Source: Myxococcota bacterium (GTDB lineage Bacteria > Myxococcota > JACRCW01). Taken from it: 13,654 nt of DNA. Position numbers and translations under genes: made by a program. The notes under the pieces were generated by a model that had not been told where the DNA came from, did no database searches, and worked only from the letters and a program-made list of their open reading frames with translations. Below, in pieces: positions 1-13,485 of the stretch. Where the stretch lies: positions 1-13,654 of the forward strand of contig JBFMGU010000279.1 in the NCBI GenBank assembly GCA_040752415.1, written 5' to 3'. How positions within the stretch are numbered: the stretch's first letter is position 1; each line of letters opens with the position of its first letter.

Positions 1-2912
1 CCATCATCCCCGCCTCCCCCGCCGGTGCTGCTGGATGTCGGCGTACTCCCAGACGAGGCATTGGCCGCGCCGGAGGATCCCGTCGAGGATCCGCACGAGG
101 AAGTGGAGGTGGGCCCCGCCGAGGTGGGTGCGCCCGACGAGGAAGACGAGGACGACGAGACCGCGGCCGAGGACGACGTGGAGGCAGCGGACGAAGCCAC
201 CGCGGCTGACGATGCGCCCGCGCTGGCGGAGGTGGCGACGGATGACGAGGTGGAAGAAGTGCTGGACGCCGCGGCGGAGGATGACGAGACGGTGCTGGTG
301 CTGCTGAGCGTGCCTGAGAACGACGAGCAGGCGCAGGACGCCGTGGTGCTCAAGGAGCTGGCCGACGACGAAGACGAGGACGACGACGCGAGCGAGGAGG
401 ACGACGCCGGAGAATCACGCGTGGAGTTGGGCGCGCCCGGCGTGCCTCCCGCAATGAACGAGGATTGCCAGCTGCCCGGGAGTGCCGGGTCCAGCTCCGG
501 GTTCACCAGCTCCAACGACGCTCCGCTGCCAGCGGCGCTCAGCGGCCAAGGCGAGGTGGTGCCATAGGCGACCTGGTCAATCACGTTGCCCATGGCCGTG
601 AGCAACTCCACCTTCTCGCCGTCATTGGCCAACTGCCCGTCGAACACGCCGTGCGGCACGAACCCGTAGGCCTGCTGGAAGGCGTCGGCGTTGGCAGCGA
701 GGACCAGGTATCCACCGCCGGGGAGCGAGGTACCCGCGGGAAAGACATACGAAATGCCACGGCTGAACGACGCCGCGTCCAGGCGGAACGCGCGACTTCC
801 CTTGTTGTGCAGCTCGACAAACTCCAGCGCCCTAGGGTCCACGCCTGGCCCCGCAACCGGCGCGTAGTGCAGCTCATTGATGACCACCTGCGACTCATCC
901 TGCGGTGGGAAATACGTGGCCCGCGCCAGGGGACTCCAATCATCGCCGTCACGCACGCGCGCCGACAACACGGTGAGCTGGTGGACCATCAGCGTCTCAT
1001 GATCATCCGCCCACAACGCGGTAGGTGCCACGCGCCCCGAGGGGTCCCGCGGATCGGCCCCGTCGAGGGTGTAGACCAGCTCGCCGTCGTTGTTGGGGTT
1101 CTCCAGCTCCACGGAGAAGTCGTGCGGGACGGCACCACCGAGGTGCGAGAACGTCGGCGCAAGCAAGCCCGGCGTGTACCAGCCGTGCTCGGAGTACTGC
1201 TCCAGGAACTCCCCGGTGCGCTCGGGGCAGTACTCGGTCAGTTTCTCGTCGCGGACGGGCACCCAGAAATCGTCACGCGTGTAGAGGAACGCGGGGAGCG
1301 ACTGATCCGCGCGGGATGCCAGGTGGTAGACGTCCCGTGCGTAGTCGCCCCAGCGCGCGGACTCCGCAATGACCGCCTGGTCCACGATGTCCGTGAGCGC
1401 GCGGTAGAGCTGATCACACCAGCCTCCCGTCAGCGCGCCCGTCCCCGAGGTGTGGAGGACCACGCGCTCATTGACGAGCTCCCGGAATGCCGGATGGGTC
1501 ACCAACCGCAGGAACAGTCGCGCGGGTGAGCCGGGTTCGTCCCAGTCGGTGATGTCGCGGTCACTGTCGCGCAGGCCGCTGTCATTGTCCCAGGGAATGA
1601 ACTTGAAGCGGGTATCCGCACCCTCACGCGAGCGGTACGCGTACCAGTTGTGGTTGGGCCAGTCGGAGTTCCCCACGTGATGTGTGAGGATGATGTAGTC
1701 CGCCAGGTTCACCAGGTCCGCGCGCTCCACAACCTCGTCGTAGACGGCGTCGGAGATGGGGCCTTCCACCAGCGCGTGCAGCTCATTCCAGGCGTCAATG
1801 CTGCCCAGTGCGGCGGTGGGCGCGTAGGAGGGCTCGGCGTCCTCGTCGGGGAGGATGAGGTCGTAGTCGTCTTCTTCACCACCGAGGTAGTTGGTGAGGA
1901 ACTCGCCATCCACGCGCTCACACAGGTTGTAGAGGCCCCAGTACAGGCCGTTCAGGTAGAGGTGGACGAACACGCCTCCGTGCGGCGCCAGGTGTCCCAT
2001 CCGACGGAACGCGGCCCGTGCGAACTCGTCGTTCACGTAATCCGCGTCGGCGCGCTGGCCGCTGGAGAAATACGGCCAGGAGCGGTTGCCGCCATTGCGG
2101 AGCAGCAGGATGTCGAACTTCCGCGCAGCGCCGCGGTTGGCCAGCTCCGGCGCCGACGCTGCGAAGACCGGGAACTCCAGTTTGGTGGGACCGTAGTCGC
2201 CGCGGAAATAGAGGCGGATGGACTTCTTGGGCGACCGGTACGGCTGACGACTTCCCTGTCCATGCACGCGCGCGCCGGCATTCAGTCCGAAGAACTCGTT
2301 CCGGTTGGGATCCAGCCACTCCATGGAGACCGGGCGCTCCCACTCCTCTCCCTTTTCCGTGGCGTTGTAATAGATGCCGCGCTCCTCGCCGAAGAGGTTG
2401 TCCGCGTCCGTCACCAACGAGATCGTGGGAATGCTGCGCAGCGCCCCGGGAAGCGCGTCACCGTATTCACGGCTGGCCACCACTTCGGGGTCCATGCCGT
2501 AATCCGCGGGGTACGGGCCGTCCTCGTCGGTCTCCGCGAATTGCGCGGGATAATCCGGCGGGTTCTCCGGCTGGCGAATGACGTCGGCGACGAAGATGTA
2601 CGTGTGCGTGACCACCTCCGACTCGCCATCCGGAGTCACGGTGACCGCGCGCAGCGCAGTGGTGCTGCTGATCGTGATGGGGCCGCTGTAGACCTCGCCA
2701 TCATTCTCGTCGGGCTCGGAGCCGTCGGTGGTGTAGCGGATGAGCGCGCCGGGCTCGTTGGTGGTGAGGGTGACCGCCAAGGGAGCGTCGTGGAATCCGC
2801 GCTGCACGCTGAACGTGGGTGGCTCAGGCTCTTCCGGCGCGGAGGTGGCCCCGGAAAGCAACAACACGCTGCCCAGAAGCATCCAGGGCGTCGGGAACTT
2901 CCGAGAAAACAT
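1..2912 (-). CDS. Secreted CotH-family kinase protein, 3' end truncated by the window edge: signal peptide, CHB_HEX_C/Fn3-associated domain, CotH kinase, second CHB_HEX_C-like domain, lamin-tail domain (LTD), Ser-rich stalk
   Basis: Not in the ORF track because its stop lies outside the window; translated by hand. ATG 2912 (in-frame alternatives 2924, 2882) has GAGGG 5 nt upstream. It begins MFSRKFPTPWMLLGSVLLLSGATSA (signal-peptide-like), then PTFSVQRGFHDAPLAVTLTTNEPGALIRYTTDGSEP (CHB_HEX_C/Fn3_assoc). CotH motifs: RMHGQGSR..PKKSIRLYF, HLYLNGLYWGLYNLCER, GNSDWPNHNWY, FIPWDND. Second module: LVYTLDGADP. LTD: VVINELHY..EFVELHN..LANDGEKVEL..ASLEL..GGTPGAPNS. Poly-Ser region ends ...STGGGGGDDG at base 1. 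The reading frame is the same at both ends (about 970 codons). Confidence 0.9.
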   Translation of the reverse strand, partial: MFSRKFPTPWMLLGSVLLLSGATSAPEEPEPPTFSVQRGFHDAPLAVTLTTNEPGALIRYTTDGSEPDENDGEVYSGPITISSTTALRAVTVTPDGESEVVTHTYIFVADVIRQPENPPDYPAQFAETDEDGPYPADYGMDPEVVASREYGDALPGALRSIPTISLVTDADNLFGEERGIYYNATEKGEEWERPVSMEWLDPNRNEFFGLNAGARVHGQGSRQPYRSPKKSIRLYFRGDYGPTKLEFPVFAASAPELANRGAARKFDILLLRNGGNRSWPYFSSGQRADADYVNDEFARAAFRRMGHLAPHGGVFVHLYLNGLYWGLYNLCERVDGEFLTNYLGGEEDDYDLILPDEDAEPSYAPTAALGSIDAWNELHALVEGPISDAVYDEVVERADLVNLADYIILTHHVGNSDWPNHNWYAYRSREGADTRFKFIPWDNDSGLRDSDRDITDWDEPGSPARLFLRLVTHPAFRELVNERVVLHTSGTGALTGGWCDQLYRALTDIVDQAVIAESARWGDYARDVYHLASRADQSLPAFLYTRDDFWVPVRDEKLTEYCPERTGEFLEQYSEHGWYTPGLLAPTFSHLGGAVPHDFSVELENPNNDGELVYTLDGADPRDPSGRVAPTALWADDHETLMVHQLTVLSARVRDGDDWSPLARATYFPPQDESQVVINELHYAPVAGPGVDPRALEFVELHNKGSRAFRLDAASFSRGISYVFPAGTSLPGGGYLVLAANADAFQQAYGFVPHGVFDGQLANDGEKVELLTAMGNVIDQVAYGTTSPWPLSAAGSGASLELVNPELDPALPGSWQSSFIAGGTPGAPNSTRDSPASSSSLASSSSSSSSASSLSTTASCACSSFSGTLSSTSTVSSSSAAASSTSSTSSSVATSASAGASSAAVASSAASTSSSAAVSSSSSSSSGAPTSAGPTSTSSCGSSTGSSGAANASSGSTPTSSSTGGGGGDD
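3..415 (-). repeat. Low-complexity Ser/Thr/Ala/Gly-rich coding tract (stalk) of the CotH protein
   Basis: The plus strand is rich in gacgacga/gacgag, the reverse complement of TCG/TCC Ser codon runs. It translates as SSSSLASSSSSSSASSLSTT...SSSTGGGGG. Confidence 0.8.
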
Positions 2913-3139
2913 GACGACCCTCATCCAGGAAATCGTGAAGGACACCCCAGCAACACCCAATCGCCTTTTTAGCGACGCACGGTGGGCATCGCCGCGCAGT
3001 GACGGCATCACGACTTGCGGCGGGCCAGGCGCTTCACGGTGCGGCTTGCGCGGATCCGTGCGGACTGGGCGCAACCGACGTCCGCGACACCCGGATCACC
3101 CGCGGGATGCCATGGCCGCGACGGCCGGGCGTCAGCGAA

Positions 3140-5890
3140 TCACAGCCCCCCGCTCAACGTCATGTAGATGCCCGCCTGGGACGCCACGTACACCACCGTG
3201 GGGTCCTGCGGGTGGAGGCCAATGGCGCTGATGGTGGCCCGTGGCGCGTCGACTTCCTGGAACGTTGCGCCGTCGTCGTCGCTGACCAGCAGTCCGTTCC
3301 CGGTTCCAACCCACACCCTGCCCGAGCCCACCGCCAGCGAGACCGCTTCGACACCCGTGAGCGCGGTGGGAAGCCAAGCGGCGCCGTTGTCCGTGGTGAC
3401 GTACACCCCGTCGGAGCACGCTGCGTAGATGGCGCCGGTGGCCGACGTATCCCTGGCAAGCTTGAAGCACTCCGCGGCGGTGATTCCGGTGGCGCGCGAT
3501 TCCCAGTTGGCGCCAGCGTCGTTGGTGTAGCGCACCACGTCCGTGTCGTCGTTCGTCAACGCCAGCGCGGTGGTGGGACCGTGCTGCACGATCACCAGGT
3601 CCTGGATGGAGAAGTTGTTTGCGCCCAGCTGCGTCCAGTCCTGTCCCGCGTTGGCCGTGACCCACAGCGCCGACGTGGTGGAGCTGGTTCCCGCCCAGAT
3701 CGTGGCGGGCTCGCTGGGGTGGGAAGCGAAGACGGTGACGTGTTCCGCGGTCAACGAGAGCACCTGGCTCCACGTCTGTCCGTCATTCTGCGACGTGTAG
3801 AGGCGCGTCTGGGTTCCGCTCAGCCAGCGATTGTCCGGCGCCAGCAACAGCGCATGCGTGTCCGACGGAGAAGGAAGACCCGAGGACGAGGCCCACGTCA
3901 GGCCGCGGTCCGTGGTTCGCAGCACCGCCGCGGAGTCCATGCCCACGAGCACCAGGTCGGGTTGCGCGGGGTTGAACGCAATGGAATTCACCTGGCCCGT
4001 CAGGTTCGCCGACGAGAGCTGGGTCCACGCGACGCTCCCGCTGAACAGCGTGGGACGGAAATCACCGGTGCCGTAGAGCTCTCCGTTGCCGTGCGGGTCC
4101 ACCACGACCCTGCCGCGCACCTCGCTGCGGACCAGTTGGAATGTCAGGGGCTGGGCGCGATCCGCGACGTAGATGCCCCCACTGGTGACCACGAGCAGCA
4201 GACCGGAGGTCACGGCCAGGTCCCGGAGACCGTTGTTGGAGACGCCGTCGACGTGCGACCACGTGCCCCCGCTGTAGCGGAACAGGTCGGAGCTGTTGAT
4301 GGCGAAGAGCGTGGCGGCGTCCAGCGGGTCCGGCTTCACCGCCAGCACCACGGCGCGGGTACCGGGGTTGGTCACGACGTCCGGCCCCAGCGTGGAGGTC
4401 CACGTGTCGGCGTTGTCGGTACTGACGTAGACGCCCAGGTTGGTGCCGGCAATGAGGGTATTGTCCGCGCGGGTCAGGGCCAGCACGTCGACGTTGGCGG
4501 GAAGGCCCACGTTCTTCGGCGACACGGAATCGCCTCCGTCGGTGGACGCATACATGCCGCTGACCGTTCCCACCCAGAGGATGCCGCCCGGTCCTGCCAG
4601 CAGGGATGTCATGGGTACCGCGGGCGACGGAATGGCGGCGGTGGTGGCGCTCCACGTGGCCCCGCGGTCGCGCGACCTGTAGATGACGTCCGCCGACGCG
4701 GCGTAGAGCAGGTCAGGGTCGTCGGGCGCGCGCGCCAGGCCAATCAGCGGGACGTCTTCCGCGCCGCCGTTGGCAATGCTCGACCACGTTGTTCCCCGGT
4801 CATCCGTCTGGAAGATGCCACCGGGCACGCGGGTCAGCATGAGCAGGCGGTCCGGAACGTCAGGATCGGTGTCGACGGAAATCACGCTGCCGAGGATCTC
4901 GCCGATCGCCGGGAAGAAACCACCCACCACGTCCACCCCTGGCAGGTCCACGGCGGGCAGCGGGGGCGAGGAGACCCTCAGGCGATATCCCAGTCCGCCC
5001 GCGCTGATCACCACGTTGTCGAACGTTGCGACGCCACCTTGCGCGAGACGAACGACGTCACCGGACAGCACTGCGCCGTTGGCGTTGCGAACCATGGATA
5101 GCGTGACGCTGGCGGCAACATGGACCCGCACACCCTGGTCGTCGCGAAGCTCGACGGTGAAGGTCGGCAACGGCTGCCCCGCGGTACCCAGCGTGGGCGC
5201 CGAGTCCACAACCAGCTGCGTGGCGGCCCCCGTGACGTCGAACGACACGCTGCTGACGGGATCCAGACCCGCCGCCTCCGCCACGAGCACGTGGCCCTGA
5301 CCGCGCACCACGGGGCGGAGGTCGTCAAACGAGGCCTGGCCGTTCATCGCGTTTCGTTGCGTGGTTCCCTCCAGGGCGCTTCCGTCGTCCAGCCGCACCG
5401 TGATGGCGTCGGAACGTTCCTGCAGCGGCACCCCGTTGGCGTCCTGGATTTCCACGACGGGAGCTGGAGTGATCGCCTCGCCGAGGACGACGCTGCTGGG
5501 TTGCTGCAGGAACACGAGCCGCGCCTGGCCGCCGGTGGACGAGCTGCTCGCACTGCTGGAAGTGGAGCCGACGGACGAGGACGTCGACGAGCTCGTGGCG
5601 GTGCCGCTGCTGGAGGTCGCTGAGCTGGAGGAAGTGGAAGAGGTGGTGACGCCGCTGCTCGCTCCGGACGACGAGGAGGATGACGACGAAGACGACGATG
5701 ACGAGGCGGACGACGTCGACGCAGCGCTGCTGGCCCCCGACGAGCTGCTGGGCGCCGGCGGGGTGGCGCACACCTCGTCCTGACAGGTCTGGCTCTCCGG
5801 GCAATCGTCGTCGGAGGCGCAAGGGAGCTCACACCCGGCCGCCAGCGCCAGGACCATGAACCCGACGAGGGAAGTGTCACGCGCGCGCAA
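3140..5890 (-). CDS. Lipoprotein: Cys-rich N-terminal module, Ser-rich linker, two Ig-like domains and an Asp-box (BNR) beta-propeller region (Ycf48/VPS10/GH74-like fold, function unknown)
   Basis: 916-aa ORF with TTG start. Lipobox LAAG-C (Cys20), then CELPCASDDDCPESQTCQDEVC and about 70 aa of poly-Ser. Two related domains follow (LVFLQQPSS..PVVEIQDANG..GQASFDDL and LVVDSAPT..FTVELRDDQG..GVATFDNV). Ten Asp-box-like motifs: TDDRGTTW, SRDRGATW, STDGGDSV, STDNADTW, TTDRGLTW, SQNDGQTW, TANAGQDW, TNDAGANW, TTDNGAAW, SDDDGATF. Confidence 0.85.
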   Translation of the reverse strand: MRARDTSLVGFMVLALAAGCELPCASDDDCPESQTCQDEVCATPPAPSSSSGASSAASTSSASSSSSSSSSSSSSGASSGVTTSSTSSSSATSSSGTATSSSTSSSVGSTSSSASSSSTGGQARLVFLQQPSSVVLGEAITPAPVVEIQDANGVPLQERSDAITVRLDDGSALEGTTQRNAMNGQASFDDLRPVVRGQGHVLVAEAAGLDPVSSVSFDVTGAATQLVVDSAPTLGTAGQPLPTFTVELRDDQGVRVHVAASVTLSMVRNANGAVLSGDVVRLAQGGVATFDNVVISAGGLGYRLRVSSPPLPAVDLPGVDVVGGFFPAIGEILGSVISVDTDPDVPDRLLMLTRVPGGIFQTDDRGTTWSSIANGGAEDVPLIGLARAPDDPDLLYAASADVIYRSRDRGATWSATTAAIPSPAVPMTSLLAGPGGILWVGTVSGMYASTDGGDSVSPKNVGLPANVDVLALTRADNTLIAGTNLGVYVSTDNADTWTSTLGPDVVTNPGTRAVVLAVKPDPLDAATLFAINSSDLFRYSGGTWSHVDGVSNNGLRDLAVTSGLLLVVTSGGIYVADRAQPLTFQLVRSEVRGRVVVDPHGNGELYGTGDFRPTLFSGSVAWTQLSSANLTGQVNSIAFNPAQPDLVLVGMDSAAVLRTTDRGLTWASSSGLPSPSDTHALLLAPDNRWLSGTQTRLYTSQNDGQTWSQVLSLTAEHVTVFASHPSEPATIWAGTSSTTSALWVTANAGQDWTQLGANNFSIQDLVIVQHGPTTALALTNDDTDVVRYTNDAGANWESRATGITAAECFKLARDTSATGAIYAACSDGVYVTTDNGAAWLPTALTGVEAVSLAVGSGRVWVGTGNGLLVSDDDGATFQEVDAPRATISAIGLHPQDPTVVYVASQAGIYMTLSGGL
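5535..5750 (-). repeat. Ser-rich low-complexity linker of the lipoprotein
   Basis: Translates as SSSSGASSAASTSSASSSSSSSSSSSSGASSGVTTSSTSSSS...SSSSTGG. Confidence 0.8.
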
Positions 5891-6689
5891 GGGCCATCAC
5901 CATCAGCACCGTGGCTGCGAGCGCCGCGCTCCCCACGACGACGGACGTTGCCGCCAGTCCCGCGAGGCCCGCGGGCATGGAGTAGAGCGCCACCAGCCGC
6001 GGAGTGCGCGTCAGCATGGGGGTCTGCAACATGGCCAGGACGGCGGGCGTCCGAATCAGCATCAACACGCCAAACGACGCGGCCGTGAGCGCCAGGCCCG
6101 CGACGAACGAGGCCAACGCCAGCGCCGTGGTCACGGTGGTGCCACCGAGGAGCACCGGCTTGAGCGTCGTTCCCTCCGCATCCTGGGGCGGTGGCGCCGA
6201 AGCCTCCAGGAACCTGGCGCGCACCAGCAGGCTCCGCACCGCGCCGGGCAGCACCTTGATGAGGGCCTCCTCTCCCTGCCCGGTCACCCGCTCCGAGACC
6301 GCCGCCGCTTCCAGGGCCGTCTTCACGTCAATGAGCCGGAGCTGGAGGAAGGAGGTGTTGCCTACGCGCGCCGCGCTCCCGACCATGAGATGCGTCACGC
6401 CCAGCGCACCAACCATGTCGGAATCCACCATGGCGCACTCGTCGGAGACGCACTTGAGGAGTTGTTGCTGCTCCACCGTTCCAATCAGCGTGGCAATCTC
6501 CGCCGGGCCCACCACCCGGAGAAACGCCCCCGAGCCGCGCAGCTCGAAGATGGCGTCGTTGGTGAGGACCTCCGTGGTCGACGGGAGGACGGGTTCCTTG
6601 GCACTGAAGGGAAACACGGCCACGGAACGGTGCGTGTCCGTTGGAACGGCCCCCGCGAGCACCGCGAGCAGCAAGGCAGCAACACCCAT
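5877..6689 (-). CDS. Exported or membrane protein with a CsgG/TolB-N-terminal-like alpha/beta domain and C-terminal hydrophobic helices
   Basis: 270 aa. Signal-like N-terminus MGVAALLLAVLAGA. The segment VAVFPF..RVVGPAEIATLI..QQQLLKCVSDEC..VGALGVTHLMVGSAARVGNTSFLQLRLIDVKT resembles the TolB-N/CsgG-like domain with a CxxxxC pair seen in myxobacterial hypothetical proteins. Two long hydrophobic segments lie at the C-terminus. Overlaps the downstream lipoprotein start by 14 nt. Confidence 0.7.
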   Translation of the reverse strand: MGVAALLLAVLAGAVPTDTHRSVAVFPFSAKEPVLPSTTEVLTNDAIFELRGSGAFLRVVGPAEIATLIGTVEQQQLLKCVSDECAMVDSDMVGALGVTHLMVGSAARVGNTSFLQLRLIDVKTALEAAAVSERVTGQGEEALIKVLPGAVRSLLVRARFLEASAPPPQDAEGTTLKPVLLGGTTVTTALALASFVAGLALTAASFGVLMLIRTPAVLAMLQTPMLTRTPRLVALYSMPAGLAGLAATSVVVGSAALAATVLMVMALARA

Positions 6690-6697
6690 GCAGGTTG

Positions 6698-6726
6698 ATT
6701 ATCAGACCGGGGCGGTGCGCGTTCAA
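6698..6726 (-). promoter_or_regulatory. Sigma70-type promoter TTGAAC-N17-GATAAT for the 270-aa gene
   Basis: Minus strand reads TTGAAC gcgcaccgccccggtct GATAAT caacctgc ATG. The hexamers match consensus at 4/6 and 5/6 with a 17-nt spacer, in an AT-richer patch of GC-rich DNA. Confidence 0.6.
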
Positions 6727-6820
6727 TTCCTCACACGTCGGGCTGGAACGGAACCTGAGGGGTGGCGGGCCTGGCGCCAGTCATGACGTCGGATTCTGCC
6801 GGCAACCCGGGGCAGTGATG

Positions 6821-9310
6821 TCAGCGGCGGTCGTCCTGCGACTGCTGGGGTCCACCCACGGGCAGGGCCACCAACGCGGGAATGTTGGCCACGAACGTGC
6901 TGCCCACGCCCAGCTCCGACGTCAGCTCCACGCTCCCGCCCAGCGCCTCCGCCATCTCCCGCACCAGCGCCAGGCCCAATCCCACGCCGGGAGTGTGCTT
7001 CCGCAGCGCGGGCTCCAGCTGCACGAAAGGCTCGAACACGCGCACCTGGTCGTCGGGATGGATGCCCGGCCCGGTGTCCTTCACGGCAACCCGCAGCGTG
7101 TCGCCCACGGTGCGCGCGTCCACCTCGACGGAGCCCCGCACCGTGAACTTCACGGCGTTGGTGAGGAGGTTGCCGAGGATGAGTCGGAGCAGGCGCGCGT
7201 CGGTGGTGATCGGTTGCGCCTCCGCGGTGTTCACCACCAGGGTGAGACCCTTCTCGTCGGCGTGGGGTCTGACGTCGTCAACCACCTCGGCCACCAGCTC
7301 GCGGGGATCCACCCGCTCCGGGGACACCCGGATGCGCCCCGCCTCGATGCGGGAGTGCTCCAGCAGGCTCTCAATGAGGACCTGCAGGCGCTTGGTGGAG
7401 GCTTCCATGCGCCGGATGGTGACGGCGTGTTTCTCGCCCAGCTGCGCGGCGTCGCGGGAGAGGCGGTAGACCTGCAGCACCAGCGCGCCCAGCGGCGTGC
7501 GCAGCTCATGGGACACCAGCGCCAGGAACTCAGTCTTCACCTGGCTGGCCCGCTCGGCGTGCTCCCGCGCCACGCGCACCGTCTCCAGCGCGGTCTGCAG
7601 CTCCCGCTGACGTCGGGCCAGCTCCTTGACCAGCGCGTCCAGGCTGCGCCCCTGCATCTGCGTCTCCGCCTCCAGCGCGTCCCGCGCGCGCTTCCGGCCC
7701 ACCTGGTTGTCCACGCGCACCCGCAGTTCCTCGACGGAGAACGGCTTGGGCAGATAGTCCTGGGCGCCCAGCTTCAGCATGCTGGTACGGAACGCCTCGT
7801 CGACCTTGGCGGTCAGCATCACCACCGGCACCTGGTCCAGCTCCACCCGGGAGCGGACCTCACGCAGCAGGGCCTCACCCCCCATCACGGGCATCATGGC
7901 GTCGGTGATGATGAGGTCCGGCGGGCTCTCCAGGGCCACGCGCAGGCCTTCCGCTCCGTCGGCGGCGGTGGTCACCCGGTAGTGTGGCGCCAACGCGTCA
8001 GCCAGGAACTGGCGCAGGTCGCGGTTGTCCTCCACCACCAGCACGCGCGGGAGGTCGGCGTCCGAGGTCACCGGCGCGGCTTCCGGTGTCACCTGCAGCT
8101 GCTCCACCGCCTGCGTGGCCGCCAGCGTCGCCACCGGCTGGGCGGGAGTCTCCACGGCCGCGCCCTCCGGCGCCTTCAGCGGCATCTCCACCACGAACGC
8201 CGCGCCACCCTCTGGCGCACTCCCCACGTGGATGGTCCCGCCGTGCAGCCGCACGAAGTCACGGGCAATGGCGAGCCCCAGCCCGGTGCCCCCGTGTTGA
8301 CGCGTGGCGCTCCCGTCGAGCTGGCGGAAGCGCTCGAACACCACCTCGCGGTCCTCCGGGCGGATGCCGGGGCCACTGTCGCGGACCTCCAGGTGCAGCC
8401 GGCCCTTCCCGTCGTCATGCGCGCTGAGCCGGACCCGCCCGCCGGCCGGCGTGAACTTGAAGGCGTTGGAGAGGAGGTTCAGCACCACGCGGGAGAGCTG
8501 GTCCTCGTCCACCTCCGCCGGGAGCACGTCCGGCACCGCAACCTCGAAATGCATGCCCCGGTCCCGCGCCACGCCGTCAAAGTTGCCCGCCAGGGTGCGC
8601 AGCATGCGCGCCAGGTCCAGGCGTGCGTAGCGCGGCGCCAGCCTGCCCGCGTCAAGCCTGGCGGTGTCCAGCAGGTCCTCCACGTGGCGCATCAGCGTGC
8701 GCGCGTTGCGGGCAATGACGTCGAGGTCACGGGCCTGGGACGGCGTGAGGTTGCCATGGGACAGCAGCTGCTCGGCGGGCCCCAGGATGAGCGCCAGCGG
8801 CGTGCGCAGCTCATGGCTGACGTTGGCGAAGAACTCGCTCTTGAGGCGGTCCAGCTCCCGGGAGCGGTCCAGCAGGTGCGCCAGCTCCCGGTTGGCCTCC
8901 TCCAGCTTCATGCCCCGCTGGTGGCTCACCACCGCGGCGTCCGCCAGCGCCACGGCCTTGGGGACCAGCGGCGGCAGCAACAACGCGGTGGCCACCGAGG
9001 CGACCGCGGTCAACGCCCTCACGCCGCCATCCACCCAGTACGCGGGATGCCAGATCACCAGCACGTCCATGAAGTGCGTGACACCGCAGGTGACGATGAA
9101 GACGGCGAAGGCCAGGTACATCCACTGGAACGGCAGGTCGCGGATGCGACGGACCAGGATCAGCAGCGTGGCGGTGATGGCAAAGTAGGCCAGGCCGATG
9201 GCGACGTTGGTGAGGACCTGCAGCCAGACCAGTCCCGGCGTCCAGAGGTAGCAGTGCCCGTGGGGCATGAAGGATTGCGGTGACAGCGCTTCCAGCAAGG
9301 CATCCAGCAC
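6821..9310 (-). CDS. Hybrid sensor histidine kinase with ETR1-type ethylene-receptor transmembrane domain; layout EBD-HisKA-HATPase-REC-HisKA-HATPase
   Basis: 829 aa, GTG start with GGAGG 6 nt upstream. N-terminus FMPHGHCYLW..AYFAI..FAVFIVTCGVTH..RALTAVASVATA (three TM segments, CxxxH). Kinase 1: SHELRTPL, NLLSNAFKFT, DSGPGI, FERF, GTGLGL. REC: VLVVED..IITDAMMP..LTA..KPF. Kinase 2: SHELRTPL, NLLTNAVKFT, DTGPGI, FEPF, GVGLGL. Confidence 0.93.
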   Translation of the reverse strand: MLDALLEALSPQSFMPHGHCYLWTPGLVWLQVLTNVAIGLAYFAITATLLILVRRIRDLPFQWMYLAFAVFIVTCGVTHFMDVLVIWHPAYWVDGGVRALTAVASVATALLLPPLVPKAVALADAAVVSHQRGMKLEEANRELAHLLDRSRELDRLKSEFFANVSHELRTPLALILGPAEQLLSHGNLTPSQARDLDVIARNARTLMRHVEDLLDTARLDAGRLAPRYARLDLARMLRTLAGNFDGVARDRGMHFEVAVPDVLPAEVDEDQLSRVVLNLLSNAFKFTPAGGRVRLSAHDDGKGRLHLEVRDSGPGIRPEDREVVFERFRQLDGSATRQHGGTGLGLAIARDFVRLHGGTIHVGSAPEGGAAFVVEMPLKAPEGAAVETPAQPVATLAATQAVEQLQVTPEAAPVTSDADLPRVLVVEDNRDLRQFLADALAPHYRVTTAADGAEGLRVALESPPDLIITDAMMPVMGGEALLREVRSRVELDQVPVVMLTAKVDEAFRTSMLKLGAQDYLPKPFSVEELRVRVDNQVGRKRARDALEAETQMQGRSLDALVKELARRQRELQTALETVRVAREHAERASQVKTEFLALVSHELRTPLGALVLQVYRLSRDAAQLGEKHAVTIRRMEASTKRLQVLIESLLEHSRIEAGRIRVSPERVDPRELVAEVVDDVRPHADEKGLTLVVNTAEAQPITTDARLLRLILGNLLTNAVKFTVRGSVEVDARTVGDTLRVAVKDTGPGIHPDDQVRVFEPFVQLEPALRKHTPGVGLGLALVREMAEALGGSVELTSELGVGSTFVANIPALVALPVGGPQQSQDDRR

Positions 9311-9316
9311 GGTGCA

Positions 9317-9365
9317 CCTCCGCCAGCACAGCCTTCATCCTAAGATTTGACGCGCGCTGCGGCAT
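9317..9365 (-). promoter_or_regulatory. Shine-Dalgarno GGAGG (9317-9321) and weak candidate promoter ATGCCG-N17-TAGGAT for the kinase
   Basis: Minus strand reads ATGCCG cagcgcgcgtcaaatct TAGGAT gaaggctgtgctggc GGAGG tgcacc GTG. The SD is clear; the -35 match is weak. Confidence 0.4.
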
Positions 9366-9397
9366 CATCCCGTCGGGCACGGGCCGGCGTGACGTGA

Positions 9398-9943
9398 TCA
9401 GGGCAGCGGGTCCGGGTCCAGCCGGTCCCAGTTGTCGTCGGGCGTGATGGGGAGCGCGCCCTGCCGGCCCAGCGCGGTGGCCAGCGGACGGACCGCGCCC
9501 ACGACGGGAAGCCAGGCCTCCGGCCACGCGTCCAGCAGCGGCCACAGCACAAAGGGACGCTCGTGCGCGTGCGGGTGGGGGAGCGTGAGGTTGGGCAGCG
9601 CGCAGCGGAGCGCGCCCACGGTGATGAGGTCCAGATCCAGCACCCGCGGGCCCCAGCGCTCGGCGCGCACGCGGCCGGCCCTCCGCTCCAGGTCATGGAG
9701 CAGGGCCAGGAGCGCCAGCGGGTCCGTCGTGGACGGAGCCTGGAACGCCAGGGCGGCGTTGAGGTAGCGCGGCTGGGGCGGCCCCACCGGCTCGGTGCGC
9801 CAGAGGCGGGAGAAGCGCAGGCCACGCGCGCCCAGCGACGGAAGATGCGTGATCAGCTCCGCGCGGGCCCAGCGCAACGTGGCGGGCGGATCCCCCAGGT
9901 TGGCGCCCAGGGCCACCGCCACCGTGAGCATGTCAGCTTCCAC
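9398..9943 (-). CDS. folK: 2-amino-4-hydroxy-6-hydroxymethyldihydropteridine diphosphokinase (HPPK)
   Basis: HPPK motifs VALGANLGD, SRLWRTEPVG..QPRYLNAA, LERRAGRVRAERWGPRVLDLDL and LTLPHPHAHERPFVLWPL. Start placed at GTG 9943 because AGGAGG (9950-9955) lies 6 nt upstream; ATG 9931 is an in-frame alternative. The ORF-track extension to 10072 lacks HPPK-like sequence. Confidence 0.93.
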   Translation of the reverse strand: MEADMLTVAVALGANLGDPPATLRWARAELITHLPSLGARGLRFSRLWRTEPVGPPQPRYLNAALAFQAPSTTDPLALLALLHDLERRAGRVRAERWGPRVLDLDLITVGALRCALPNLTLPHPHAHERPFVLWPLLDAWPEAWLPVVGAVRPLATALGRQGALPITPDDNWDRLDPDPLP

Positions 9944-10048
9944 GGGGACCCTCCTGATGCGTGCCCGCGGGACGCGGAGGCGGTAGAAGGTCGCGCCCGG
10001 GGCGGGTTGGGGAGGAGCCGGCCCTAAGACCCCGGCGGCGCTGGGAAA

Positions 10049-10078
10049 TTGACCTTGCCACGCCTGTGTCACTAGCTT
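10049..10078 (+). promoter_or_regulatory. Candidate sigma70-type promoter TTGACC-N18-TAGCTT for the FrgA-like gene
   Basis: TTGACC at 10049-10054 and TAGCTT at 10073-10078, in the divergent folK/frgA intergenic region, 14 nt before ATG 10093. Confidence 0.45.
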
Positions 10079-10092
10079 GCGCTCACGCTCCC

Positions 10093-13000
10093 ATGGAAAT
10101 GCTTGGCGCTCTCCTCTTGCGCACGGGCGTCCTGGACAAGGACGTACTGGCGGCAGCCTTGGACCGTCAGGTGGTCTACGGCGGCACGCTGGATACCGCC
10201 GTGCTTGAAATGGGGGTGCTGGACGAGCCCGCCATGGCCGAGCTGCTGGCGCGCTGGACGGGCTACCCGGTCTGTCCGCCCGGGGCCCTGGAGTCGGCGG
10301 ATCCCGCCGCGCTGGCCGCGCTGCCTGGCGCCCTGGCCTCCCGCTTCCTGGTCACGCCGTTCGCGCTGACGCCGGAGGGCCTGTGGCTGGCCACCACGGC
10401 GCCGGTGGACGTGGACAGCCTGGCGCAGCTGGGCGGCCTGATTGACCGGCCGGTCCTTCCCCACGTCACCACCGAGCTGCGCATCCGCACCGCACTGGCC
10501 CAGGCCTATGGCGTTGCGCTGGATCCGCGCTTCCAGGAGCTGGCCAGCTACCTGACCGCGCGCGCCGCGGCCCTGGCCGCGCAGGCTGCCCCGCCGCCGC
10601 AGGAGGCCCCGCCGGCGGACTCGGTGGCTTCCGCCGTGGAGCAGAGCGGGGGCAGCCGCGAGGTGATCTTCCCCGCCGCGCCACGCCCGGAGCCGGAGCC
10701 CGCCCCCGCCGACGAGGACCAGGCGCGGCCCATTGATTTCGCCGAGGCGCTGGCCCACCTGGCTGCCGCCACGGACCGCGACGGCATTGTGCAGCTCACG
10801 GTGCGCTACGCGCTGCAGACCTTCCCGTTCGTGGCGGTGCTGGGCGTGCTGCGTGGCCAGGCGGTGGTGTGGGCCGCGCGCGGTCACAAGGGGGAGAAGC
10901 CGGAACAGCCCGAGCAGCTCAAGGGCACCACCATCTCGCTGCAGGAACCCTCGACGCTGCGCACCGTGGTGGAGACGCGCGCGCCCTCGCTGGGGCGGCC
11001 CAGCACGGGGCCGGCGGGGACCACGCTTTCCGAGCGGTTGGGACGCGGCGTGCCGCGGGCGTGCCTCATGGTGCCCGTCCTCGTCGGAGGGCGCGTGGTG
11101 GCGGTGGTGTACGCGGACCACGGGGAGTGGGCCATCCGCACGCAGCAGGCCTCGGAGATCCTCGCATTCGCCTCGCGCGTGGGGCCGGCGTTCGAGCACA
11201 TCATCCGGGAGCGTCGCGCCAAGACCCTCAATCCACCCGCGCCGCCGCCTCCCCCGCCGCCGCCTCCGCCCGAGGAGCTGGCGCCCCTGGCCATTGCGGA
11301 AGCGGCCGTCAGCACGCTGGCCGCCACGCAACAGGCAGAGCCGGAGCGCTGGGTGGTGGGTGGACCGGCCGCGAACACGCTGAGCGTTCCGTCGGCGGAA
11401 GCCACCTCGTCGCCACCGGTGGAGCAATGGGTGGTGCGAGGCCCCGGGGAGAGCGCGCCGCCGGTGGAAGCCCCGCCGCCTGCTCCCCCGCCGCCACCTG
11501 CCCCCGCCGACGAGGAAGAGGACGAGGAAGAAGAGGCCGCCACGCCGGGGGAGGAGAGCATTCTCGTCGAGCCGGAGCCCACCGAGGCCTCTGCTCCCTC
11601 GTCCGACCAGCCCACCGAGACCCTGGAAGTCGACACCGGCGTGGCCACTGGCGAGGAGGTCACGGTGGCGATGGACGAGCCCGGTGGGGAACCGGCCGCT
11701 CTCGCGCCCCCAGCCCCGCCAACTCCGGAGCCCACCCCCATGGGTCCGGCCGCGGCGTGGGGTGAACCGCCCGCGACGTCCGAGCCCGCGGTTCCCGTCG
11801 AGGCTCCGCCTCCCGCCGCGCCACGCCCCGCGTTGTCTCCCAACGTGTCGCCGGAGGCCGCCGCCCTGGCCGCCGCCGCGCTCGCGCGCCTGCAGGCCGG
11901 TGACGACGACGATGACGAGGACGAGGAGGAGGGCGCCAGCGCCAAGGAGACCTCCATTGCCGAGGACACCACCTGGGCCGCGGCGATGGTGGACGTGCTG
12001 GGCAGCGGCAAGGGACGCGCGCCCGCGGAATCCGACGGCTCCTTCAAGACCTCCGACGACGCCAACACGGCCTGGCAATCCTCCCTGGCCCAGGCCGCCA
12101 AGGACGCGGGCACGCTGGAGAAGCCCGTCTATCAACCGCTCCCCGAGGACGACGACGAGGAGGAGGAGTCGCCCAAGCCGGGTGAGGAGTCGGTGGTGTT
12201 CGCGGAGGTGGCGGACAACGCCGCGGCGGGTACGCAGGCCTTCACCAAGGCCCTGAGCGACACGATCGAGAGCGGCAAGCAGGGTGGTGAGGCCGACAAG
12301 GACTACAAGGCCTTTGCCCAACCGCCCACCACCACCGACGACGACGACGACGAGGACGAAGAGCCGGACAACGTGGGCTGGGAGTCCGTGGTCTACCAGG
12401 CCGCGGAGCAGGTGCGCGCCGAGGAGGAGAAGTCCAAGGCGGCCAAGGTGCCCAACGGGAGCGCACCCAATCCGTTTGCGGTGGAGGCCGTGCCGCAGAC
12501 CAGCTCCACGCCGCCGCCGCTGCCCGCCGACGCCGCCACCTCCACTGGCGTGCTTCCCCCTCCGCCGCCCAAGACCACGCGCTCGCAGCCGCCGCCCGTG
12601 GAGGAGCCCGCGCTGATTGACCCGCCCAAGGTGTGGGTGGAAGCGCTCATGAGCGGCGTGGCGGACCGCGTGGTGGTGGCCATCCAGAAGCTGGCGGAGC
12701 TGGGAGAAGCGGCCGTTCCCGCGCTGACCGCGGCGTTCCCCGGTCGCGTCACGTTCGACCCGTTTGGTCCGGACCCCAATCCGCCCGACGCTGCGTCGGT
12801 GTCGCCGTTGATGGATGTGCTGTGCAAGATGGGCGGCACGGGGCTGCAGGTGGCCATCACGCACCTGGACAGCAAGTTCCCGGCACACCGCTACTTCGCC
12901 ACGCTGCTCTTGTGTCGCGGGTACCAGCCGGCGGTCATCCCCTACCTGCTGCGTCGCCTGCATGACGACGAGCCCCGCATCCGCCGCCTCAGCGCCGACG

Positions 13001-13485
13001 GTCTCGCCATGTACGTGGCCGACCCGGGATTCGACCAGGTGCTGCGTCATCTCCGCACGCGCGTGACCTCGCTGGTGCCAGAGGCGCGTCGCCGGGCCAT
13101 CCACTTCCTGGGCCGTTTCCGCGACGTGGGCAGCATCCCCGCGCTGGTGAACGCGCTGCGGGCCAAGGAGCCGGAGATTGTGCAGGAGGCGGGGCTGGCG
13201 CTGCACGCCATCACGCTGCAGTCCTACGGCACCAGTGAGCGCAAGTGGATCAATTGGTGGGAGAAGAACAAGCACCGCTCACGCATTGAGTGGCTCATTG
13301 ACGCCCTGCGCGACAGCGACGTGGAAGTGCGTGCGCGCGCGGGTGCGGAGCTGGCGCAGCTGCCGCGGGACACCTTCGGTTTCCGCGCCGACGCGCCCAA
13401 GCGCGACCGCGAAGAGGCCGTCAAGCGCTGGGAGAAGTGGTGGGCGGACGAGCGTCGCCGGCTGGCTCCTGGCGCAGGCTCGTGA
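10093..13485 (+). CDS. frgA: FrgA-like protein: MshEN/T2SSE_N-like N-terminus, GAF-like domain, long acidic/Pro-rich linker, C-terminal HEAT repeats
   Basis: Likely start ATG 10093 or 10099 (about 1130 aa). N-terminus LGALLLRTGVLDKDVLAAALDRQVVYGGTLDTAVLEMG is MshEN-like. Middle region DRDGIVQLTVRYALQTFPFVAVLGVLRGQAVVW..LMVPVLVGGRVVAVVYAD is GAF-like. C-terminus AFPG..RYFATLLL..LHDDEPRIR..WWEKNKHRSRIEWLIDALRDSDVEVR..TFGFRADAPKRDREEAVKRW. Domain order and motifs match myxobacterial FrgA proteins as I recall them; not verified by search. Confidence 0.75.
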   Translation: MEMLGALLLRTGVLDKDVLAAALDRQVVYGGTLDTAVLEMGVLDEPAMAELLARWTGYPVCPPGALESADPAALAALPGALASRFLVTPFALTPEGLWLATTAPVDVDSLAQLGGLIDRPVLPHVTTELRIRTALAQAYGVALDPRFQELASYLTARAAALAAQAAPPPQEAPPADSVASAVEQSGGSREVIFPAAPRPEPEPAPADEDQARPIDFAEALAHLAAATDRDGIVQLTVRYALQTFPFVAVLGVLRGQAVVWAARGHKGEKPEQPEQLKGTTISLQEPSTLRTVVETRAPSLGRPSTGPAGTTLSERLGRGVPRACLMVPVLVGGRVVAVVYADHGEWAIRTQQASEILAFASRVGPAFEHIIRERRAKTLNPPAPPPPPPPPPPEELAPLAIAEAAVSTLAATQQAEPERWVVGGPAANTLSVPSAEATSSPPVEQWVVRGPGESAPPVEAPPPAPPPPPAPADEEEDEEEEAATPGEESILVEPEPTEASAPSSDQPTETLEVDTGVATGEEVTVAMDEPGGEPAALAPPAPPTPEPTPMGPAAAWGEPPATSEPAVPVEAPPPAAPRPALSPNVSPEAAALAAAALARLQAGDDDDDEDEEEGASAKETSIAEDTTWAAAMVDVLGSGKGRAPAESDGSFKTSDDANTAWQSSLAQAAKDAGTLEKPVYQPLPEDDDEEEESPKPGEESVVFAEVADNAAAGTQAFTKALSDTIESGKQGGEADKDYKAFAQPPTTTDDDDDEDEEPDNVGWESVVYQAAEQVRAEEEKSKAAKVPNGSAPNPFAVEAVPQTSSTPPPLPADAATSTGVLPPPPPKTTRSQPPPVEEPALIDPPKVWVEALMSGVADRVVVAIQKLAELGEAAVPALTAAFPGRVTFDPFGPDPNPPDAASVSPLMDVLCKMGGTGLQVAITHLDSKFPAHRYFATLLLCRGYQPAVIPYLLRRLHDDEPRIRRLSADGLAMYVADPGFDQVLRHLRTRVTSLVPEARRRAIHFLGRFRDVGSIPALVNALRAKEPEIVQEAGLALHAITLQSYGTSERKWINWWEKNKHRSRIEWLIDALRDSDVEVRARAGAELAQLPRDTFGFRADAPKRDREEAVKRWEKWWADERRRLAPGAGS

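Follow-up and report, generated by a model that had tools for sequence, protein, structure and literature searches.

The question raised by this locus is whether a member of the Myxococcota senses ethylene, or a molecule like it, through a receptor of the plant ETR1 type with an altered binding site. The window analyzed here is the whole stretch of 13,654 nucleotides presented above, in which an earlier note, made from the sequence letters, had placed such a sensor domain at positions 8950–9275, corresponding to residues 12–120 of a sensor kinase. Our preferred answer, to which we assign a probability of roughly 0.55, is that the protein, a dimeric inner-membrane kinase, depends on copper to sense ethylene or a similar small molecule, which it is predicted to bind with low affinity and to release fast.

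A hybrid histidine kinase with an ETR1-type sensor domain

The sensor kinase gene begins with a GTG start codon at 9310, has GGAGG at 9321–9317, six bases 5' of the start, and shows a third-position GC of 0.93 in its reading frame. The gene and the parts of its product are as follows:

6821..9310, minus strand: whole gene, encoding an 829-residue membrane hybrid histidine kinase with the order ETR1_N, HisKA/HATPase, receiver, HisKA/HATPase (open reading frame, translation, Pfam domains)
9242..9271, minus strand: motif FMPHGHCYLW ahead of helix 1, residues 14–23, outside the Pfam profile (conservation)
8945..9232, minus strand: ETR1_N ethylene-binding-type domain, residues 27–122 (Pfam PF25487, E 1.2e-32; AlphaFold2 model)
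8174..8842, minus strand: first kinase core, HisKA 157–222 with phospho-His166 and HATPase_c 268–379 (domain search and conserved H166)
7712..8044, minus strand: receiver domain, residues 423–533, with phospho-Asp470 (domain search and conserved D470)
6866..7543, minus strand: second kinase core, about residues 590–815, with phospho-His601 and N, G1, and G2 boxes (HisKA and HATPase stretches)

The first kinase core also contains N, G1, and G2 boxes, and with H166, H601, D470, and both sets of ATP-binding boxes the protein has the makeup of a hybrid histidine kinase. Among 77 long homologs, H166 and D470 are each kept in 77 and H601 in 76, as is the receiver residue K522 (76/77). An NCBIfam search returned generic kinase models only, every one below its cut-off.

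The N-terminal domain aligns with Pfam ETR1_N at 112.5 bits, against a curated cut-off of 27 bits, and covers profile positions 2–97 of 97, a sequence match far above chance level. The earlier note had recognized an ETR1-type sensor domain by eye and had staked it on a significant profile match, which is what the full-profile hit provides. A BLASTP comparison with AzoEtr1 (525 residues; sequence from the Azospirillum brasilense Sp7 plasmid record, L001 2468–4045) yielded 52/138 identities, or 38% over residues 1–138, with zero gaps and an E value of 2e-33, and the nearest N-terminal domains, from Myxococcaceae metagenome-assembled genomes (MAGs), are 67%–71% identical. Judged by sequence comparison, the domain is genuinely homologous to the ethylene-binding domains of ETR1, SynEtr1, and AzoEtr1. 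Searches of the PDB returned no match to residues 1–140 at E ≤ 10 and, using Foldseek with the model of the domain, none at E ≤ 0.001, the 251 weak ones being generic helical proteins.

Because ETR1_N is already a Pfam family, and a very large one (8245 cluster representatives at E ≤ 0.001), detecting the domain is not in itself new; the new part is a variant clade within a phylum lacking prior study of such domains. In line with the earlier note, which knew of no characterized example in Myxococcota, our search of the accessible literature found no paper on a myxobacterial one.

Three substitutions in the predicted binding site

The translation gives N35, Y42, I45, T46, I72, C75, H79, and R98, and AzoEtr1 has D35, Y42, I45, P46, I72, C75, H79, and K98 at the matching positions. 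We mapped these residues onto ETR1 through the AzoEtr1 alignment and PMC11819568, which aligns AzoEtr1 D35, C75, H79, and K98 with AtETR1 D25, C65, H69, and K91, so that the offset to ETR1 is +10 in helices 1 and 2 and +7 at K91. The constant +10 offset through TM1–TM2 reported in the earlier note agrees with this mapping, and its residue assignments hold: the counterparts Y42, I45, I72, C75, and H79 are all kept, and the changes of D25 to N35 and of P36 to T46, as well as R98 at the K91 position, are exact in the translation, the codons (minus strand: AAC 9208–9206, ACC 9175–9173, TGC 9088–9086, CAC 9076–9074, AGG 9019–9017), and the alignment.

9206..9208, minus strand: Asn35, at the position of ETR1 Asp25 and AzoEtr1 Asp35 (alignment and PMC11819568 mapping)
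9173..9175, minus strand: Thr46, at the position of ETR1 Pro36 and AzoEtr1 Pro46 (alignment to AzoEtr1)
9074..9088, minus strand: Cys75 to His79 on helix 2, presumed Cu(I) ligands, equivalent to ETR1 Cys65/His69 (alignment and conservation)
9017..9019, minus strand: Arg98 on helix 3, at the position of ETR1 Lys91 and AzoEtr1 Lys98 (alignment and PMC11819568 mapping)

PMC11819568 uses a set of seven residues to predict functional bacterial ethylene receptors. Five of the seven are present here, N35 replacing Asp and T46 replacing Pro. We take the set to be D25, Y32, I35, P36, I62, C65, and H69, Y32 presumably being a member; at ETR1 P36 we know of no substitution other than alanine. C75 and H79 supply the Cys-His pair, spaced by one turn of helix 2, that characterizes the ETR1_N family, and N35 together with these two retained residues gives the protein the features of an Asn variant.

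AzoEtr1 and the myxobacterial protein have in common a gapless N-terminal domain with identical numbering, a PHGxC motif, the five shared site residues, and a three-helix region leading into a histidine kinase. Apart from D35, P46, and K98, AzoEtr1 differs in being an EBD-PAS-kinase with a receiver gene directly downstream, whereas the myxobacterial protein is without PAS, combines kinase, receiver, and kinase in one chain, and has no response regulator gene adjoining it in the window. Motifs of the FMPHGHCYLW type, probably on the periplasmic side, also occur in AzoEtr1 and Acaryochloris, and 146 of the best 150 of the 8245 cluster representatives have H17 as well as C20. According to PMC11819568, tests of bacterial ethylene receptors have been limited to two, those of Synechocystis and Azospirillum; AzoEtr1[1–130] shows saturable 14C-ethylene binding, and SynEtr1 (Slr1212, Synechocystis PCC 6803) is likewise a bacterial ethylene-binding domain protein with histidine kinase activity and phosphorelay, but is also a light receptor.

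Two of the three changes have been engineered in ETR1, a member of the same Pfam family. ETR1 D25N is still ethylene-responsive and open to inhibition by 1-MCP and silver, with a koff raised at least 100-fold, and K91R shows normal copper binding with ethylene binding at 63% of wild type (PMC10266040, PMC11971883). Both forms keep the receptor working and equal the natural residues here, and by analogy they lend published backing to the earlier note's suggestion of altered affinity. ETR1 itself keeps Pro36 where the myxobacterial protein has Thr46, and it signals mainly via CTR1 and not phosphorelay (PMC11971883); the published ETR1 forms are D25N and K91R, whereas the triple combination of Asn, non-Pro, and Arg is known here from sequence alone.

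The Asn/Arg variant marks a clade

Asn at the Asp25 position occurs in 3.67% of 1,221 ETR1-like sequences, for which fast release, suited to taxis, has been proposed (PMC10266040, PMC11971883). The natural Asn variants named in these papers come from cyanobacteria and two plants, not Myxococcota; the cyanobacterial domains share the Asn with our protein, which differs from the published variants in that Asn here is accompanied by Arg in place of Lys91 and, in most cases, by loss of Pro36. The Asn/Arg pair is frequent among the nearest relatives of this gene: in the best 150 of the 8245 representatives, positions 35/98 are D/K in 88, N/R in 59, N/K in 2, and D/R in 1.

Among the 120 closest proteins, position 35 is Asn in 114 and position 98 is Arg in 115, N35 being paired with R98 in 114/114 cases and D with K in 5/6, and position 46 is S in 77, A in 20, F in 14, T in 9, and P in 0. 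The same proteins retain C75, H79, and I72 in 120/120 and Y42 and I45 in 119/120; Cys75 and His79 are invariant in a further set (81/81), and the complete set of Y, I, I, C, and H is retained by 145 of the best 150 representatives. The combination of Asn35 and Arg98 without Pro46 is found in 114/120 closest proteins and in 32/82 genome loci, including Sorangium cellulosum So ce56, and, as read from these residue patterns, marks a whole clade composed mostly of Myxococcota. The variant binding site of the earlier note is thus real in its substitutions but clade-wide and not peculiar to this gene. Canonical D-P-K domains were found in Myxococcota at 8 of the 82 loci examined.

A tree of 233 rows has 4 changes between N and D and 6 between R and K, and independent N35/R98 switch pairs number 1 on well-supported branches and 4 on all branches of what is a poorly resolved tree (11/226 inner branches starred). 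On this tree the Asn/Arg change looks like one or a few switches. The survey of covariation proposed in the earlier note recovered the N/R and D/K pairing, but with a single independent pair on supported branches we rejected it as statistical evidence of contact: the pairing is essentially one clade event and lends almost no independent support here. The pairing fits the coupling of Asp25 and Lys91 published for ETR1 (GREMLIN 0.960, EVcouplings 0.997; PMC10266040).

The N-terminal domain is the best-conserved part of the protein, with mean column conservation among the 77 long homologs of 0.75–0.77 over residues 41–120, compared with 0.49–0.72 in the stretches that cover the kinase and receiver domains. 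From the loss of two of the seven ETR1-needed residues, the lack of neighbors with a recognized ligand-related function, and the little copper that ETR1 D25N binds in vitro (PMC10266040), one might suppose a degenerate domain that binds neither ligand nor copper and serves as a membrane anchor and dimerization module under a kinase regulated otherwise, but we consider this very unlikely, since the conservation of the domain and of its binding-site residues, with Cys75 and His79 invariant, speaks against a mere anchor, which would have no reason to retain metal-binding and polar side chains within the membrane.

Structural models

The AlphaFold2 model (mean pLDDT 87.1, pTM 0.73) predicts helices at residues 25–55, 62–87, and 91–129, that is, the three N-terminal transmembrane helices typical of the ETR1_N family. 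The N-terminus would lie outside, and the position of a basic loop (R54, R55, R57) between helices 1 and 2 fits this topology.

Histidine kinases are textbook dimers. The dimer prediction called for in the earlier note, run as a two-copy model of residues 1–130, scored 0.65 against 0.00 for the best of 3 controls, the mark having been reached in the benchmark by 20/30 proteins solved as one-chain pairs and by 1/23 solved single. Three runs share at least 96% of contacts, and partner pLDDT is at least 79. In the modeled interface, helix 1 of one copy packs against helix 3 of its partner, with contacts between C75 and C75' and between R98 and partner residues 34 and 38; residues 13–22 also belong to the interface. 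The model supports a symmetric dimer of the N-terminal domain, short of demonstration.

Genomic neighborhood

No ethylene-, alkene-, or copper-related neighbor was recognized in the window with Pfam or NCBIfam, and the folK, 270-aa, BNR, CotH, and MshEN-GAF-HEAT neighbors had 0 matches in 82 related loci at E ≤ 1e-8; as no window neighbor recurs in those loci, the context is silent on function. The neighbor at 5877–6689 matches no family, and the adjacent folK finds its best named match, no more than 60% identical, in a “Deltaproteobacteria bacterium” MAG. GC content is 65%–75%. Taken with the Myxococcaceae origin of the nearest N-terminal domains, these values make the myxobacterium-like genome of the earlier note plausible, short of proof. 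A promoter and terminator scan of 6600–9600 gave one promoter-like site, at 6726–6698 (minus strand) ahead of the next gene, and zero terminators, and so tells nothing about the kinase gene.

Proposed mechanism and competing explanations

We infer copper binding, ligand, kinetics, and the order of phosphotransfer as follows. Cys75 and His79 on helix 2 would hold Cu(I), at which a small unsaturated molecule, most likely ethylene, would bind; a polar link between Asn35 and Arg98 would pass the change to helix 3, which would set the activity of the first kinase (His166). The first kinase would phosphorylate the internal receiver (Asp470), whose state would control the second kinase (His601) and, through it, a response regulator from another locus. 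We expect low affinity and fast release because Asn replaces the Asp that polarizes the copper-binding His in ETR1, and by analogy with the plant mutants ethylene binding is likely to be weaker and faster to release; such a protein would sense changing, fairly high ligand levels and would not act as a high-affinity trap. Against this reading stand the replacement of both Asp25 and Pro36, P36 being among the essential ETR1 residues (PMC6586836), the minimal copper binding of purified ETR1 D25N in vitro and its undetectable 14C-ethylene binding in yeast and in planta, though the receptor signals (PMC10266040), and a neighborhood with no ethylene, alkene, or copper gene.

The best-surviving alternative, which we nevertheless hold to be unlikely, is a copper or redox-state sensor, in which the occupancy or oxidation of Cu(I) bound by Cys75/His79 would be the signal, with no gas involved and perhaps with help from a periplasmic His17-x-His19-Cys20. 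Such a sensor would suit the invariance of the copper ligands, the His/Cys-rich motif before helix 1 with its place in the modeled interface, and the absence of both Pro36 and the Asp that gives ETR1 high ethylene affinity. Yet the motif is also present in the ethylene-binding AzoEtr1 and hence no peculiarity of the variant clade, the pocket residues that are not copper ligands (Y42, I45, I72) show equally strict conservation, and no copper-homeostasis gene was recognized in the window, though the neighbor at 5877–6689 belongs to no matched family. Moreover, Asn weakens copper binding in ETR1, which would be odd in a dedicated copper sensor (PMC10266040).

Next in order, and improbable in our estimate, comes a different ligand bound by the same copper chemistry, such as a larger alkene, carbon monoxide, or an isocyanide from soil microbes or prey, in a pocket retuned by Asn, non-Pro, and Arg. 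Sites of the ETR1 type accept other alkenes and pi-acceptors as well, position 46 varies inside the clade (S, A, F, T), and a joint change at three positions of the pocket or relay was then held fixed across it (114/120 proteins; 59 of the best 150 of 8245), which looks like selection for a new optimum and not decay. Nothing, however, points directly to any alternative ligand, D25N alone leaves ETR1 ethylene-responsive (PMC10266040), and the canonical D-P-K domains at 8/82 loci indicate that standard sites do occur in the phylum.

Implications for Myxococcota

Whatever its ligand, surveys that demand all seven ETR1 residues would miss the Asn/Arg clade. If the clade binds ethylene, as the preferred reading of a fast-release copper-dependent sensor predicts, gas sensing would extend to Myxococcota, the published Asp25-His69-Lys91 model of affinity and signal relay could be tested on natural variants, and members of the clade would be ready-made fast-release domains of the kind sought for ethylene sensors by the authors of the D25N work (PMC11971883). 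Should ethylene not be bound, the strict retention of the Cys/His site would point to another copper-dependent signal. The question is approachable in a cultured, non-pathogenic organism, since So ce56 carries a clade member (L008 5950–7557) with an adjacent receiver (7567–7920). More tentatively, and as a proposal we would not yet wager on, Myxococcota and neighboring soil predators may harbor a large undescribed clade of fast-release, low-affinity sensors for ethylene or some other volatile, with Asn-Arg in place of the Asp-Lys relay of plant-type receptors, a lost helix-1 proline, and an unusual kinase-receiver-kinase cascade; were this true, social, predatory soil bacteria could read plant and microbial gas signals in real time.

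Genomic setting of the sensor kinase

The window has a GC content of 65–75% throughout and therefore many false open frames, and the real genes were chosen by third-position GC. The minus strand carries every gene from position 3 to about 9943.

Genes of the window (coordinates, strand, product)
3–3074, minus: CotH kinase-like, chitobiase C-terminal/Fn3-associated and lamin-tail protein, running off the window
3140–5890, minus: BNR/sortilin-type protein with BNR/sortilin repeats
5877–6689, minus: 270-aa protein, downstream of the kinase gene
6821–9310, minus: ETR1_N kinase of 829 aa, the gene of interest
9398 to about 9943, minus: folK (HPPK); longest ORF 9398–10072
9961–13485, plus: MshEN, GAF (weak match) and HEAT protein of 1174 aa

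The CotH and BNR/sortilin genes are both large, and the BNR/sortilin protein matches the F510_1955 glycosylhydrolase model slightly below its cut-off. The 270-aa protein has a signal-peptide-like hydrophobic N-terminus and hydrophobic stretches near its C-terminus; no family was found for it in Pfam or NCBIfam, and no relative among the 82 related loci described below. The sole promoter-like site in 6600–9600 lies just upstream of its gene (6726–6698). The longest folK ORF encodes 224 aa versus 181 aa in the database call for the contig, which places the real start near 9943, so that there is no true overlap with the plus-strand gene. Because the best named relative of folK, from a “Deltaproteobacteria bacterium” MAG, is only 60% identical, the host organism has no close sequenced relative. 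The plus-strand gene points away from both folK and the kinase gene, and its MshEN domain is of the cyclic-di-GMP-binding type.

An ETR1-type domain with a variant site

The kinase gene has its start codon, a GTG, at 9310, preceded at a distance of six bases by GGAGG; this choice is supported by homologs of the kinase, including the binding-tested Azospirillum brasilense receptor AzoEtr1, which likewise have 13 residues ahead of a conserved aromatic-x-P-H-G motif. The stretch that the earlier note had read as an ethylene-receptor sensor domain encodes residues 12–120, and Pfam agrees: ETR1_N matches residues 27–122 over the full model (E = 1.2e-32; 112.5 bits versus a cut-off of 27). A protein search of a plasmid collection gave 20 records with the domain, including 7 from Azospirillum, and the A. 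brasilense Sp7 record contains an ORF of 525 aa, the length published for AzoEtr1 (PMC11819568). The N-terminus aligns with AzoEtr1 over 138 residues without gaps (52 identities, E = 2e-33). Mapping to Arabidopsis ETR1 was made through this alignment and the equivalences in the available text of PMC11819568, where AzoEtr1 D35, C75, H79 and K98 are equated with ETR1 D25, C65, H69 and K91; together they show that the residue mapping of the earlier note was right. The offset of +10 holds in helices 1 and 2 and becomes +7 at the Lys91 position, in agreement with that note, and all eight residues it named stand at their numbers in the translation, with codons checked. AzoEtr1 has D35, Y42, I45, P46, I72, C75, H79 and K98. 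As read from its residues, our protein is an ETR1_N family member with the presumed copper-site residues (C75, H79) intact, in which Asn35, Thr46 and Arg98 replace Asp25, Pro36 and Lys91 of ETR1.

The variant site is a clade trait

Relatives were collected in three samples, all ranked by likeness to the window protein, which inflates the share of Asn35/Arg98 (N/R) forms, so that these shares are not whole-family estimates. A word-index search gave 5741 candidates, 543 of them proteins at E ≤ 0.001; the best 120, including the window protein, carried Asn (114) or Asp (6) at position 35, Ser (77), Ala (20), Phe (14), Thr (9) or Pro (0) at position 46, and Arg (115) or Lys (5) at position 98, in the combinations N-x-R (114), D-x-K (5) and D-x-R (1), with C75, H79 and I72 intact in 120/120. 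When 1.84 billion cluster representatives were searched exhaustively, 8245 matched at E ≤ 0.001 (5890 at 1e-10, 808 at 1e-30); the best 150 comprised 88 D/K, 59 N/R, 2 N/K and 1 D/R proteins at positions 35/98, and as triplets 58 D-P-K, 29 D-S-K and 55 N-(Ser or Ala)-R. A species-genome scan found 599 stretches, 432 of them encoding relatives; the best 80, with 2 plasmid references, make up 82 loci, a set biased towards the motif FMPHGHCY, which was among the scan patterns.

Residues 35/46/98 at the 82 loci, taxa as labelled
N/non-Pro/R: 32 loci; 21 Myxococcota, 3 Bdellovibrionota, 4 MAGs labelled Pseudomonadota, 4 unplaced
N/Pro/R: 2 loci; 1 Bdellovibrionota, 1 unplaced
D/non-Pro/K: 8 loci; mainly 3 Cyanobacteriota, 2 Acidobacteriota
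D/Pro/K: 38 loci; mainly 14 Verrucomicrobiota, 9 Pseudomonadota, 8 Myxococcota
Other combinations: 2 loci

The N/non-Pro/R loci include Sorangium cellulosum So ce56 and Sorangium sp. So ce1000. The substitutions described in the earlier note are real, but they are clade-wide in all three samples rather than peculiar to a single gene: Asn/non-Pro/Arg is a clade trait. The survey of covariation at the three positions, which that note proposed, gave a clean N-R versus D-K pattern in the relatives.

On a tree of 233 domain sequences, built with columns 35, 46 and 98 left out, we counted 4 N/D, 6 R/K and 6 Pro/non-Pro changes and only 1 independent pair on well-supported branches. On this poorly resolved tree (11 of 226 inner branches starred), the N/R group (94 rows) requires 3 changes and may still have arisen once. 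With so few changes and one supported pair, the pattern fits the published Asp25–Lys91 coupling (PMC10266040) and is not independent proof of it.

Structure models

An AlphaFold2 model of residues 1–130 (81-row alignment; mean pLDDT 87.1, pTM 0.73) has three long helices (25–55, 62–87 and 91–129), and the basic R54/R55/R57 loop between the first two suggests a periplasmic N-terminus, as in ETR1. The dimer, whose prediction the earlier note had proposed, was modelled from two copies of these residues and scored 0.65 versus 0.00 for the best of 3 controls, with at least 96% of contacts common to three runs and a partner pLDDT of at least 79. Among proteins of solved structure, 20 of 30 one-chain pairs attain the mark of the two-copy model, against 1 of 23 single chains; the model supports a dimer and is not a demonstration of one. 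In the model, helix 1 packs on helix 3 of the partner, C75 adjoins C75', and R98 lies against partner residues 34 and 38, so that, if the modelled interface is right, Asn35 and Arg98 may form a link between subunits.

Ahead of helix 1 and outside the Pfam profile lies FMPHGHCYLW (residues 14–23; 9242–9271, minus strand). Both His17 and Cys20 are kept in 146 of the best 150 of the 8245 cluster representatives and are also present in AzoEtr1 and an Acaryochloris homolog, and residues 13–22 fall within the modelled interface. The motif could be a periplasmic copper-entry or disulfide site.

Output modules and neighbouring receivers

From its N-terminus the protein runs ETR1_N, HisKA/HATPase, receiver, HisKA/HATPase; two complete histidine-kinase cores flank a single receiver in one chain (residues 157–829; 6821–8842, minus strand). 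Among the best 120 of the 543 proteins, 77 have at least 750 aa, 35 fewer than 600 aa and 8 lie between. The listed Pfam domains of the 77 fit the kinase–receiver–kinase layout, the commonest among these closest relatives (77/120), and the 35 short ones are EBD–PAS–kinase proteins (EBD, ethylene-binding domain), as is AzoEtr1. His166 (77/77), Asp470 (77/77) and His601 (76/77) are kept in the long homologs, in which the N-domain is the best-conserved portion of the chain. From the domain order, the first kinase would act on the receiver, whose state would gate the second kinase.

Across the 82 loci just one gene recurs beside these kinases, that of a stand-alone receiver immediately downstream, found at 9/34 N/R versus 16/46 D/K loci by our own crude gene calls, with four examples and So ce56 confirmed by Pfam. 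The window kinase has none there; its downstream gene is 5877–6689, without a Pfam or NCBIfam match.

Functional reading

Published ETR1 mutants indicate that two of the three changes mimic tolerated mutations. In the available text of PMC10266040, D25A abolishes binding, and D25N shows only minimal copper binding in vitro and undetectable 14C-ethylene binding; yet D25N restores receptor function in plants devoid of the five native receptors, its action is blocked by silver and 1-MCP, and the authors infer an at least 100-fold faster release rate. A sensitivity drop of about 100-fold is confirmed in PMC11971883. PMC10266040 also reports that K91R has normal copper binding and 63% of wild-type ethylene binding but makes plants hyposensitive. 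Pro36 is, with I35 and I62, counted essential for binding (PMC6586836), and its loss is a real risk to an ethylene reading of this site.

The protein departs from the seven-residue pattern by which functional bacterial ethylene receptors are predicted. Our best reading, with a probability of roughly 0.55, makes it a low-affinity sensor that depends on copper, releases its ligand fast and responds to ethylene or a chemically related compound. That the domain is instead a copper or redox sensor seems unlikely, retuning to another ligand slightly more so, and a dead anchor domain improbable.

The domain family is an established one that receives automatic annotation, and Asn variants occurring in nature have been published for cyanobacteria: among 1,221 ETR1-like sequences, 93.55% have Asp25 and 3.67% Asn, the latter “most commonly in cyanobacteria” and proposed to suit rapid sensing, e.g., taxis (PMC10266040), and the natural Asn carriers named in the available text of PMC11971883 are cyanobacterial genera only. 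No report of a Myxococcota-centred Asn/Arg/non-Pro clade with dual-kinase output was found in the searchable literature, outside which key surveys of bacterial homologs lie, nor, among the titles listed, any publication on a myxobacterial ethylene receptor in literature that names ethylene receptors or ETR1 together with myxococcal taxa or Sorangium; the one Sorangium match listed is a phosphorelay review of general scope in which ethylene and ETR1 each occur once. In So ce56 (NC_010162.1), positions 5950–7920 of locus L008 hold the gene of an Asn/Ser/Arg-type ETR1_N–PAS–kinase followed, after 10 bases, by that of a stand-alone receiver of 117 aa, an arrangement shared with AzoEtr1 and its receiver. 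This cultured and fully sequenced myxobacterium is a ready test organism.
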